From: Vezdaea acicularis
Lineage: Eukaryota
Direction: 5' to 3'
Assembly: GCA_026025075.1 (NCBI GenBank)
Contig: JAPEUI010000006.1
Location: 248,001 to 270,842, forward strand
DNA length: 22,842 bases
Below the pieces are notes generated by a model. That model searched no databases, was not told where the DNA came from, and saw nothing but the letters and a program-made list of their open reading frames with translations. A program made the position numbers and the translations under genes. Positions 2,951 to 6,025 of this stretch are shown here, piece after piece. Within the stretch, counting starts at the first letter, position 1, and every line of letters begins with the position of its first letter.

Positions 2951-3178
2951 TGGCTTGACATATTCCTCATGCCAAGGCGGGTACCCCTACGCTCTGCTAT
3001 ACTTCTATACTCCATGCATATGGGACAAAGTAGATGTATCATTTAGAAACCTAGCAAAATACAAGAGGTGAAACTATCTAGACCCAAAGTGCACACCATA
3101 TCGGTGTCGTGTTGCTACCAACCCATAGGCGACATGGCAGTTTGAGAGATAGAAGCTTATCGTTGTTAGATCCGTAGC

Positions 3179-5374
3179 TTACATGCCAGGCGGTGGTGGT
3201 GGTGGCTGGTCACTCGGGGGAGGTGGGGGAGGTGCACCACCAGGGGGAGGCGGAGGCACAGCGCCCGGAGGTGGTGGTGGAGGACTGCCAGCCCCCGGTG
3301 CATAGCTCTGGAACAAAGCCCCTAACCCTGGGGGAGCGCCCATGCCTTGCTGCGGCGGATATCCTGCACCTTGGTCGCCATATCCAGCGCCAGGGTAAGC
3401 GCCAGGATAGTTGTAACCAGGCTGACCGCCAGGTGGGGGCGGTGGTTGTTGCCAAGGAGCTGCACCACCGGGGGGCCCAGGTGGTGCACCATAGTTGCCT
3501 GCCTGTTGACCGTAACCTCCACCATACCCATCTTCTCCACGACCCCCAGCAGCCCAAGGAGGTGCAGCGCCACCATCTCGAGGGGGATAATCATTTTGTC
3601 GATCGTCATCTCGGCCGCGAGTCTGCCACGGAGCAGCTGCGCCGGTAGGACCACGCTCCCAGGGCTTCAAATCCCTACCATCAGGACCGTCACGTCCGCT
3701 ATTATCATACCCGCCTGGTCCAGCCTCAATGCGTTGAGCGCCTTCACCGTTGCCGACAGGGCCGCCACCAGAAAGTTCTTGCATAAGTTGCTAGGGAAAG
3801 GTAAATAAGACTTATTGATAGGAGTAATCGTTCACTCACCTCGTATTCGCGATCGACAGCGTCGCCACCTCCAATAGCTCTCCCAGGAGGACCTCGAGCG
3901 CCAGGCCCATCGTTTCGCCAATTCGAGCCGCGAACGCGGTCAGGACAGTCTTTGGCCATGTGTCCAGCATTTCCGCAGACACGACAAATGATGTTCGCGG
4001 TAAAGTTACGTTGCTCGGGGCAGTCGTACTTTCGGTGGCCGATCTGACCGCAGTTTTGGCAAGCCTGGTTTTCATCGTCACGCAAAGTACCGTTGAGTGC
4101 GGCGAGTTCACGCAATTGATTGCGTTTCAGCTCATTCTGGCCTTCTGGGATGGAGGCAGCCTAGAAACTGTGAGCAAATATAAGGAATAATAGGTAAGGG
4201 CACTCACAGTCTCAATGATGTTGTGGATGAGCTTCTTGGCCTTATTCACCTTCTCTTCAGTATCGGCCATTATCAGACAGTGCAAATCTTCTTCCTGATT
4301 GCTGGTGTGAGCAGCATCTGAGCGACCTTTGCCTTCTTTGACGGATCCTTTGCCGCGGATGGCGATTTTGGCCTGGGATTCAGTCTCCATTTTCTTCAGA
4401 GTATTGCCACGAGGTCCAATTAGGAGTCCAACTTCAGTAGAGGAAAGAGCTATGTGTTAGTCTGTGATGGTTAAGTTCAAGCAAAGCGACGGTGATGATA
4501 ACGGGTTAGTGCCCGCATAGCGCCTGATCCTCTATGGATGGCGCACCCGTTGACAAAAGAAAGAAGGGAAAGGAAATGTGGGGTTAGAGAAGTGAGGGAG
4601 GTTAGAAATTGAGGGTTAGCAATCATACTAAAGTTAATCTCCGGATAATCATTTACTGGCACGTAGACTTTCTCCTGTGTCTTTGTAGGTCGGCGATAGT
4701 CTGACGGCGGATGATAGTTGGGGATAGCCTTCATAGCCTTTTCGATTAGCTTATGTCGTTCCTCCTCAAGGCGTTTCCGATATCGAAATTCCCGAGTGTT
4801 CACCCGACGGCCGAAGTTGTCGTACTGAGGAGGAGGAGATGGAGACCTGTGGAGCATATCATGAGGATGAATCACGCTAGAGAGGAGGCATGGACACTCA
4901 CCGATCACCATCAGCAGGGACCACATCGTTGATCCGTAGTTTCTGGCTGATCTCCTCAATGCGAAGATGCAGGGTATAAGCTTCGAGCTGTTCATTGGTC
5001 ATGTTGGCCATGATCATGGTTGGTAGACCCATGAGACCAGCAGCTTTATTCTCCTGAGCGTCTCCCCATCGATTCCTCTTCTTCCTACGTTTGCCACCGT
5101 CGGCGGAAGGATCTTCATCTACATTATGGACTAGATATTAGCACAGCCTTCGAACTTATTGTAGGATAGTTTGAAGAAAACAAAACTCACGGACTCGAGG
5201 TTCTGGGCTTCTACCCCGCTTGTAGCCAGAGTCGGAGGACAAGCCAGTAGACGGGTTCGTCGGATTGTAACCACCATCATCGCTGGGTGTTGCTGAACCT
5301 TGATCTCCGAATCGACGACGGTTTCCCAGTGGGATATTGTTCGAACCAGTTATTCCTTGATTTCGCCACGCCAT
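3179..5374 (-). CDS. MSL5: Branchpoint-bridging protein (BBP/SF1): KH-QUA2, two CCHC zinc knuckles, Pro-rich tail; exons 5374-5191, 5130(or 5118)-4902, 4846-4629, 4431-4208, 4160-3840, 3790-3179
   Basis: Contains [10 protein letters not shown] (ULM), [85 protein letters not shown] and [14 protein letters not shown]. Five GT-AG introns restore the frame. Confidence 0.97.
4432..4628 (-). promoter_or_regulatory. BBP intron 3 (197 nt) with multiple branchpoint motifs, a poly-pyrimidine tract, a hairpin and alternative 3' splice sites
   Basis: CTAAC on the minus strand at 4615-4619, 4601-4605, 4583-4587, 4505-4509 and 4456-4460; CTTAAC at 4470-4475. Donor GTATGA at 4628; productive acceptor AAG at 4432. 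The regulatory role is inference. Confidence 0.65.
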
Positions 5375-6025
5375 TCTCTCTAGAATAGGACACGTAGATC
5401 TCAATGATATTGTGAGGCAATGAACGAGGCCGACAGCTGCATCAGAAAATGTGGTCGCTAAAGAAGTTTTGGAGGCGAGGAAATAGAACGCTAGGTAGCT
5501 TTAGGAAAGAAGCTTAACATGCACACGTGAGTTGACACTTTCATATGAGTACGTCTTTCTTTCCATCAGGGGTAATTATTGTCTCTGTGTTGAAAAACGT
5601 TCAGAAGCAGAGAACTATCATCTGCTCAAGCTCTATAGAAGGTCGGAAACTCTATCATGATAGCCCGTTCACTTCAAGGTCAACTTTAGCACGATTTACT
5701 CCAGGCCCCTGACTATTCCATCAAGCCTTCTTGCACAGCCTAATCTATAGGGAATCAAGGGTTTTGCGGTTCGGTGTAGTACTTCAAGATGTGCATTCCT
5801 GGCGAGGAAGGAGAGCAAAGGATGTATATCGCTGTGCTGCGACCAAGTCCGTTCAGAAACGTAAAACCTAAATGGGAAAGAAGCAAGACGCCGTCCACAA
5901 AAAGCAACTACGGATGGTGCCGAATCTAAGGTGTGGTCGAGACGGTCTGCTTTAGAGTCGGCTTTTCCTCACACCGAGGCCCGTTCCAGCAGCCGGCGTG
6001 TTGACTATTCCTTGCGATCGTCCTA

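Follow-up and report, generated by a model that had tools for sequence, protein, structure and literature searches.

Introduction

In the USSE of the U11-48K and U11/U12-65K genes, the gene of a recogniser carries tandem conserved copies of the core splice signal that is recognised; according to PMC5473595, these copies are unused for splicing and, when bound, lead to unproductive isoforms, nuclear retention and negative feedback. Here we describe a comparable arrangement in a 22,842-nt stretch of DNA from Vezdaea acicularis (contig JAPEUI010000006.1, positions 248,001 to 270,842, hereafter the window), in which the gene for the branch-point-binding protein (BBP/SF1) carries an array of CTAAC motifs in the intron that splits its KH domain (intron 3). 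In the USSE, a small nuclear ribonucleoprotein (snRNP) pairs with copies of the 5' splice site and, by exon definition, switches on a 3' splice site that lies upstream, whereas the BBP intron has branch-site motifs in a short fungal intron, a presumed protein reader and what looks like retention of the whole intron. On balance, we take intron 3 to be, more likely than not, a conserved sensor intron through which BBP would control its own splicing and limit its own synthesis, in the manner of a detained intron. The KH-QUA2 domain of BBP/SF1 binds UACUAAC, with which the titles of structures 4wal and 1k1g agree.

Two further systems share parts of this arrangement. Zorio et al. (1997) and MacMorris et al. 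(1999) reportedly found that uaf-1 of C. elegans, which encodes U2AF65, has an alternative exon with repeated 3' splice-site-like UUUUCAG and that the transcript is nuclear. Like the BBP gene, uaf-1 reportedly places an array of the binding site of a 3' splice-site recognition factor in the factor's own transcript; its array is part of an exon that is included and serves U2AF, whereas the BBP array is intronic. Quaking, a STAR protein with the KH-QUA2 fold, is said to autoregulate by binding ACUAAY elements in its own transcripts, which balances its isoforms. It differs in being vertebrate, in using elements that are in the 3' untranslated region (UTR) or isoform-specific, and in not being a core spliceosome assembly factor.

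SF1 does bind arrays of the motif, since the tandem UACUAAC repeats of the long non-coding RNA Gomafu/MIAT bind SF1 more tightly than mammalian branch sites do and slow splicing in vitro (PMC3116199). Gomafu differs as a trans sponge of vertebrate neurons in a non-coding exon, outside the SF1 gene and with no feedback. In fungi, the SR-protein gene srp2 has a long intron that is retained and is a target of nonsense-mediated decay (NMD) (PMC4379411). Like the BBP gene, srp2 is a splicing-factor gene with an unusually long intron that stands at a conserved position and carries in-frame stops; its retention lowers productive output, and the BBP case would likewise be one of intron retention. According to PMC4379411, the sequence of the retained srp2 intron is not notably conserved among Aspergillus species, whereas the BBP intron is conserved in architecture and built on the cognate splice signal of its own product.

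An earlier reading of the window made from its letters alone (the sequence-only reading) had proposed that excess BBP loads the motifs and blocks the splicing of the pre-mRNA that encodes it, and knew of no description of this in filamentous fungi. Nor did a full-text literature search, outside of which lay subscription-only papers and supplements, return any report of SF1/BBP self-regulation or of BBP intron 3. A Fusarium transcriptome preprint (10.1101/2021.11.08.467853) makes no mention of SF1, BBP, branch or autoregulation, and PMC4666396 and PMC6547761 name autoregulation or SF1 only in other contexts. The arrangement would belong with the splicing factors that autoregulate through cognate or decoy sites; in none of the systems above does BBP/SF1 act on its own gene. 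BBP/SF1 is the first factor to contact the branch site specifically, and we found no description in the literature of how its level is set.

The BBP gene and the CTAAC array of intron 3

The BBP coding region lies on the minus strand at 3179..5374 (all coordinates are those of the window) and has six exons (5374-5191, 5118-4902, 4846-4629, 4431-4208, 4160-3840 and 3790-3179), whose joined frame is open over 1776 nt and encodes 591 amino acids. We identify it as the BBP/SF1 gene because of its domain matches, the match of its KH exon to Msl5 and SF1, and its nearest named protein. Exon by exon, Pfam found the SF1-HH domain (E 3.7e-13 and 2e-24), the KH-I_KHDC4-BBP domain (E 2.8e-20) and zf-CCHC (E 2.9e-13), with two zinc knuckles, and the C-terminal part is a proline-rich tail. 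The top structure match of exon 4, the KH exon, is the KH-QUA2 domain of yeast Msl5 (4wal, 4.6e-21), with 4wan and human SF1 (1k1g) also matched, and the nearest named protein is a deposited model of Vezdaea acicularis, Pezizomycotina.

Intron 3 (4432..4628, minus strand) is 197 nt long and interrupts the KH domain in phase 1, within the Ile codon between ...YPEINF and (I)GLLIGPRG. The other four introns of the gene measure 72, 55, 47 and 49 nt, hold no CTAAC and all have the donor GTGAGT. The sequence-only reading had described this difference in length, the split of the KH domain, and five CTAAC plus one CTTAAC in the intron, and measurement agreed with it on each point. The five CTAAC start at intron positions 10, 24, 42, 120 and 169, and they make up one third of the 15 minus-strand CTAAC of the whole window. 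None of 5000 dinucleotide shuffles of the intron reached five copies (mean 0.38). The second and third copies lie in a tandem duplication at 4582-4615 (period 17, 1.9 copies, 88% matches by Tandem Repeats Finder), so that the five copies of the window are not five independent events; since the count in the window overstates independence, the case rests on comparison with other genomes.

Conservation of the array among relatives

The KH exon was scanned against metagenome contigs, which gave 411 relatives, and the best 80, ranked by KH-exon similarity, were retained. Intron 3 could be scored in 77 of them, the other three having too little upstream sequence. Together with the window these loci gave 60 distinct intron 3 sequences, which fall into 29 single-linkage clusters at 80% identity. 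Introns 2 and 4 of the same loci served as controls; the motif anchors for introns 1 and 5 were unreliable. The contigs are unlabelled and took their taxon labels from the nearest named proteins.

An intron stands at the same codon position in 75 of the 77 scorable loci, and in 74 it is 137-264 nt long and holds 2-6 CTAAC; the median length over the 60 distinct introns is 185.5 nt. Short orthologous introns with a single branch point, which would have spoken against the sequence-only reading, are thus the opposite of what was found, several CTAAC being present in 59 of 60. The exceptions are L049 and L055, which have no intron at this position, and L068, with a 97-nt intron and no CTAAC. Neither in L055 nor in L068 was a CTAAC array found elsewhere in the BBP gene. 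The nearest named proteins place the loci close to Leotiomycetes, Dothideomycetes (Alternaria, up to 95% identity), Lecanoromycetes (Acarospora, up to 97%), Eurotiomycetes (Endocarpon, about 80%) and Sordariomycetes-like lineages (Apiospora, about 77%), genera that we take to belong to the classes named. Judged by these protein labels, a long, CTAAC-bearing intron 3 is kept across loci that fall nearest to five or more classes of Pezizomycotina.

The 60 introns contain 276 CTAAC (mean 4.6 per intron, 24.8 per kb), and CTAAC is the commonest 5-mer of the set. One intron has no copy, one has two, three have three, 20 have four, 25 have five and 10 have six. The antisense word GTTAG does not occur in the 60 introns, and shuffles of the same introns gave a mean of 0.49 CTAAC. 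The density exceeds that of other introns of the gene: it is 7.5 per kb in intron-4 segments (no copy in 24, one in 21 and two in 1; n=46) and 3.7 per kb in intron-2 segments (none in 26 and one in 12; n=38). The rest of the loci (324 kb) has 1.10 CTAAC per kb in sense and 0.28 per kb in antisense. No 200-nt stretch with four or more CTAAC was found in 648 kb of flanks, both strands counted, and only four stretches had three copies. Chance as the origin of the array in intron 3 is excluded.

Among the four background clusters of three copies, L011:1976-2180 and L013:1939-2143 hold three CTAAC in 200 nt just upstream of the BBP start and into it. One possibility for this cluster is an intron in the 5' UTR; another is a second regulatory site.

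Layout of the motifs

Relatives are 28-57% identical to the window intron (12% for the short intron of L068), and the layout of the motifs is nonetheless fixed. We distinguish five slots, named A to E from the donor side, which are filled in 55, 44, 34, 57 and 56 of the 60 introns, respectively. Slot A starts at +10 in 48 introns, with six more at +9 and a single one at +6; slot B lies near +18 in 44 of 60, and slot C at +22 to +50 in 34 of 60, at positions that vary among introns. In the window, slot A is CTAAC 1 (4615..4619), which starts +10 from the donor; CTAAC 2 (4601..4605, +24) occupies slot C, and CTAAC 3 (4583..4587, +42) is the second copy of the 17-nt duplication, which is lineage-specific. 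The three motifs that the sequence-only reading had placed near the donor, the first about 9 nt away, are those at +10, +24 and +42.

The central slot D, CTAAC 4 of the window (4505..4509, CACTAACC), lies directly 3' of a hairpin in a CA-CTAAC-C context; A stands at -1 in 41 of 66 slot D motifs and C at -2 in 52 of 66. A C often comes next after slots A, B and D, or CC in the case of slots A and D. Slot E, CTAAC 5 of the window (4456..4460, ACTAACAC), is the probable branch site. It reads ACTAAC, with A at -1 in 56 of 56 motifs, and in 56 of 60 introns the distance from its branch A to the intron end is 20-28 nt; in the window the branch A is 4457, 25 nt from the acceptor. The first AG after this A follows within 5-7 nt in 54 of 56 introns, 3 nt in one, and in one there is none before the acceptor itself.

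The near-motif CTTAAC of the window (4470..4475) stands, in an alignment read by eye, at the place of a TTGAT-like box in relatives. The conserved box stands upstream of the probable branch site by 10-20 nt, as TTTTGAT in many Leotiomycetes-like loci and as TTGAACTTAAC in the window (4470-4480).

Splice sites of intron 3

The window intron begins with GTATGA and ends with CTGAAG. Its donor (4623..4628) departs from consensus with T at +4 and A at +6 and is preceded by an exonic A. Among the 60 introns the donor is GTATGAT in 40, GTACGAT in 9 and another GTAYG variant in 10; position +6 is A in 51, G in 5, C in 3 and T in 1, whereas T holds this position in 34 of 44 control introns 4. The acceptor is AAG in 45 of 60 and CAG in 15, and never TAG, compared with 27 CAG, 16 TAG and a single AAG among 44 introns 4. 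In comparisons across these loci, both the donor (GTAYGA) and the acceptor (AAG) are conserved in a weak, non-consensus form.

All 15 CAG acceptors read ACTAAC/AG, 22 of 60 introns read ACTAA/AG, and 39 of 60 fit CTRA(N)AG, so that the acceptor usually lies inside a branch-site-like heptamer. In the window the AAG acceptor is part of such a sequence (4432..4439, TACTGAAG), has A at -3 and reads TACTGA/AG. A short pyrimidine run stands between the slot E region and the acceptor. The non-consensus donor and acceptor, the acceptor within a heptamer, the hairpin and an AG close to the branch point are parts of the intron beyond those of the sequence-only reading.

These splice sites bear on an opposite role for the array. 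BBP bridges to U1 through Prp40, and extra CUAAC could recruit BBP, and with it U1 snRNP, to a long intron whose splice sites are poor, so that the essential BBP message has priority and is spliced when BBP is scarce. Homotypic site clusters are often enhancers, slot E and the acceptor-proximal sites are optimal ACUAAC while the other introns of the gene have degenerate branch sites, and the conservation data fit enhancement as well as repression. But strong sites such as those of intron 4 would serve that purpose, and enhancement leaves unexplained why the donor is non-consensus in 59 of 60 introns and the acceptor in 45 of 60, why a site overlaps the acceptor AG, and why intron 3 is kept in contigs that lack all other introns (see below). 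We regard it as unlikely.

Two other intron types were considered and rejected. A stwintron has a second full set of donor, branch and acceptor nested in it, the excision of which creates a splice signal for the outer intron; here the internal GTs (GTCAAC, GTGCGC, GTTATC and GTCGCT) are unlike a fungal donor, and removal of GT..ATAG leaves no donor. A U12-type intron has the donor RTATCCTT and the branch site TCCTTAAC 10-20 nt from the acceptor; here the donor is GTATGATT, and CTTAAC lies 38 nt from the acceptor.

The hairpin and the pyrimidine tract

The hairpin just upstream of slot D (4519..4547 in the window) pairs 4547-4543 with 4523-4519 and 4539-4536 with 4530-4527. The segment is more stable than its own shuffles in 51 of 57 introns, with z below -2 in 17 of 57. 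Over 22 sequences, 89.5% of the cells of a ten-pair helix are paired, compared with 80.2% in shuffles (0 of 500 reach this value), and eight of the ten pairs are changed on both sides (reached by 1 of 500 shuffles). When the helix was slid along the alignment as a control, 24-61% of cells were paired. In minimum free energy folds, 18.3% of motif nucleotides are paired, compared with 45.9% of other nucleotides and 40.8% of other A and C, and the CTAAC motifs are thus predicted to be single-stranded. We also considered a helix between GCTAA of slot A and a conserved TTAGC after slot E. Read by eye, TTAGC is kept where slot A has AACTAAC, so that helix shows no covariation.

The 5' cluster of motifs is followed by a pyrimidine-rich tract (4552..4582 in the window). 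In 59 introns the mean pyrimidine content is 0.77 at +21 to +40 and 0.71 at +41 to +60.

The reader of such exposed motifs could also be something other than BBP, namely U2 snRNP with its GUAGUA box or another KH or STAR-type protein, in which case the intron would signal how much of that factor, not of BBP, is present. We think this quite unlikely: the array sits in the BBP gene itself and nowhere else in the flanks examined, single-stranded motifs and the C or CC after slots A, B and D are needless for U2 pairing, and we know of no second UACUAAC-specific protein in Pezizomycotina. On its side, CUAAC is the U2-pairing sequence too, QKI competes with SF1 for ACUAA sites in mammals (PMC13004596), and the USSE of the minor spliceosome is read by an snRNP (PMC5473595).

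Effect and possible occurrence of intron retention

Retention of intron 3 breaks the reading frame ahead of the GPRG loop in all 60 introns, by an in-frame stop inside the intron in 58 and by a frameshift in the other two. In the window, translation of the read-through meets its first in-frame stop at 4477..4479 (TGA on the minus strand), before the GPRG loop, as the sequence-only reading had given it. Among relatives the stop lies 6-63 codons into the intron at a place that varies, and the tail encoded by the intron is not conserved.

Four short contigs (L032, L033, L042 and L078) have none of the other introns, bona fide GT..AG introns 47-76 nt long, that their nearest genomic relatives (L076, L043, L074 and L071) carry at the corresponding places, and all four keep intron 3 whole (207, 245, 172 and 189 nt). 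L033 and L078 span 5' leaders of 28 and 54 nt, the full reading frame and 3' trailers of about 200 nt, and L078 ends 17 nt past an AATAAA. From this structure we infer that the four are transcript-derived contigs with one retained intron, which suggests that the retained form accumulates rather than decays. Because its motif positions are fixed, its splice sites weak, its retention breaks the frame and these contigs keep it, intron 3 fits a regulated, self-sensing intron. The self-limiting switch of the sequence-only reading is partly supported, the array, the fixed slots, the weak splice sites and the frame break all being consistent with self-sensing, but where it invoked NMD the contigs hint instead that the retained form accumulates.

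ORF-called protein fragments (from open reading frames) were tried as a read-out of retention and rejected, since genomic read-through and retained transcripts are indistinguishable in them. L032 has a frame change without a gap at about 1099-1105, and its spliced reading frame ends early at 372 amino acids; either a mistake of assembly or an additional processing variant could underlie this. In L049, an intron-free, mRNA-like contig, some 1 kb of what its relative L052 has before the start codon is missing (L049:847-1082 compared with L052:889-2118), owing perhaps to a spliced intron of the 5' UTR or to another layout upstream.

An accumulating retained form might be translated into a useful truncated modulator that has the N-terminal U2AF65/Mud2-binding and helix-hairpin region and no KH domain. 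Retention does leave residues 1-206, with SF1-HH intact, plus a short tail, and the retained form seems to accumulate. The varying place of the stop and the unconserved tail argue against it, however, and it leaves the motif array, the hairpin and the weak splice sites unexplained, which makes it very unlikely in our view.

Choice of the acceptor

An AG in ATAG (4450..4451) lies 7 nt after the probable branch A of the window and 18 nt upstream of the AAG acceptor; in most relatives it is TTAG. It looks like the better acceptor, and the closest deposited model, P0022, takes it, which adds six residues to the first KH strand. The direct junction fits the Pfam KH profile with 78.5-78.7 bits (positions 2-76) and P0022 with 68.8 bits (positions 8-76), and the direct EINF/IGLLIGPRG junction is common to 43 of the 120 listed proteins; for these two reasons we take the productive acceptor to be 4432. 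Splicing to the upstream AG may occur as an alternative that is mostly out of frame.

In eight deposited BBP models, 6-15 residues that derive from the intron stand between EINF and GLLIGPRG; another four (three of Apiospora and one of Curvularia) have no EINF within 22 residues upstream. The models discordant at the junction are P0022, P0038-P0042, P0044, P0060, P0066, P0112, P0114 and P0116. From a comparison of these models with the intron, gene prediction seems to be led astray by the unusual AAG acceptor, and deposited BBP models with intron-derived KH inserts seem to trace to it.

The same features could belong to a switch between branch sites and acceptors, in which slot E with the distal AAG is productive and slot D or a 5' site with an upstream AG (the conserved TTAG/ATAG or one before slot E) yields an out-of-frame or insert-bearing mRNA; the array would govern this choice and not full retention. 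Such a switch would account for the AG that 54 of 56 introns conserve at 5-7 nt past slot E and for the eight models with inserts, and because the length from the upstream AG to the real acceptor varies, this AG mostly falls out of frame. A distance of 7 nt between branch A and AG is normally too short for use, though; the deposited inserts may be errors of gene prediction, the KH profile fit is worse with the insert, and the four mRNA-like contigs show retention of the whole intron and no alternative acceptors. We consider the switch improbable.

Signs of selection on the intron and intron loss

Intron 4 is at shuffled-level identity in 566 of 861 locus pairs, and in 82% of those pairs intron 3 lies above the shuffled 95th percentile. 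Individual CTAAC copies turn over, as the duplication in the window and the variable positions of slot C indicate, and their number stays at 4-6, a pattern that looks like selection on a binding-site cluster. Six genomic loci (L046, L050, L063, L065, L077 and L080) have no intron 4 after the KH exon and keep a long intron 3 with 4-5 CTAAC; in these lineages intron loss spared intron 3.

That the array is a neutral by-product, CTAAC arising by slippage in a long, low-complexity intron rich in C, T and A with no function, is extremely improbable. Two of the five copies of the window do lie in the 17-nt tandem duplication. Yet at least two copies occupy the same slots in 59 of 60 introns while neighbouring introns are at random-level identity, and both the missing antisense motif and the shuffle mean of 0.49 per intron speak against slippage.

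Downstream of the BBP gene of L068, the locus with the short intron 3, two near-identical segments (GGGACTAAC...GCTRACTTGCTAG) lie about 95 nt apart (L068:3070-3270). By their sequence they look like duplicated intron 3' ends.

Proposed mechanism

In the detained-intron model that we favour, low BBP would leave only slot E occupied, this being the best placed site and, as ACUAAC, the best match; the intron would be spliced and full-length BBP made. At high BBP, the extra, weaker sites would fill, probably with the help of the BBP partner Mud2/U2AF65 bound to the pyrimidine tract next to them. A site at +8 to +14 would then stand against the U1/U6 contact region of the weak donor and interfere with it. 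The branch A of slot A, at +13, is presumably too close to the donor for use, and the donor-side site could thus offer U1-bound Prp40 a branch site that traps the bridge. The site over the acceptor would mask the AG. Splicing would stall or be diverted, and BBP-coated unspliced RNA would accumulate as a non-coding, nuclear-detained transcript, or be degraded if exported. The stalled RNA would be expected to stay nuclear because BBP and Mud2 are needed for the nuclear hold of pre-mRNA in yeast, where loss of either lets pre-mRNA leak to the cytoplasm (PMC2377449).

Several points weigh against this model. The 80 loci were chosen by KH-exon similarity and the sampling was confined to Pezizomycotina. 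The covariation test of the hairpin used 22 hand-picked sequences out of 57, and folding of the whole intron gave weak z values (median -0.74, 12 of 60 below -2), only the local hairpin standing out. Depletion of AG after the 5' cluster is modest (ratio 0.58; no AG at +7 to +65 in 35 of 59), and AG exclusion is for that reason not used as an argument. The 5' sites may bind BBP weakly, since their -1 nucleotide is G, A or U and not the A of optimal ACUAAC, and since CUAAC pairs with U2 snRNA, U2 snRNP could be the reader. The fully spliced form is represented as well, by L049, which is mRNA-like and has no introns, and by P0020 and P0021, full-length proteins on mRNA-sized contigs. Finally, the four contigs with a retained intron could instead be genomes that have lost all other introns, although this would also argue that intron 3 is protected.

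A wider form of the detained-intron model is possible, and we hold it more tentatively. Across Pezizomycotina, an RNA sensor in the BBP gene would set free BBP and early spliceosome assembly capacity, the detained complex being a reservoir that is spliced once BBP falls. The sensor would combine a weak donor, a flanking decoy 3' splice-site region (the branch-site array and the pyrimidine tract), a covarying hairpin that presents a site, a perfect branch site, and an acceptor hidden in a branch-site heptamer; excess BBP-Mud2 would lock the BBP transcript into a dead-end, nuclear-detained complex. If the model is true, a core E-complex protein joins the self-limiting splicing factors, and the intron is a compact natural system (less than 200 nt) for the block of splicing by branch-site-like sequences near the donor and over the acceptor. 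The same system would then serve for the nuclear hold of pre-mRNA by BBP and for the tuning of fungal intron-definition splicing.

Other features of the region

An Rfam scan of 3000-5800 (E up to 10) gave five weak matches, all far below gathering scores and none within 4432-4628. Convergent with the BBP gene, the plus strand of the window has a 429-amino-acid open frame at 1661-2950, rich in Gly, Ala and Pro, with about 230 nt between its end and the BBP stop codon (3179).

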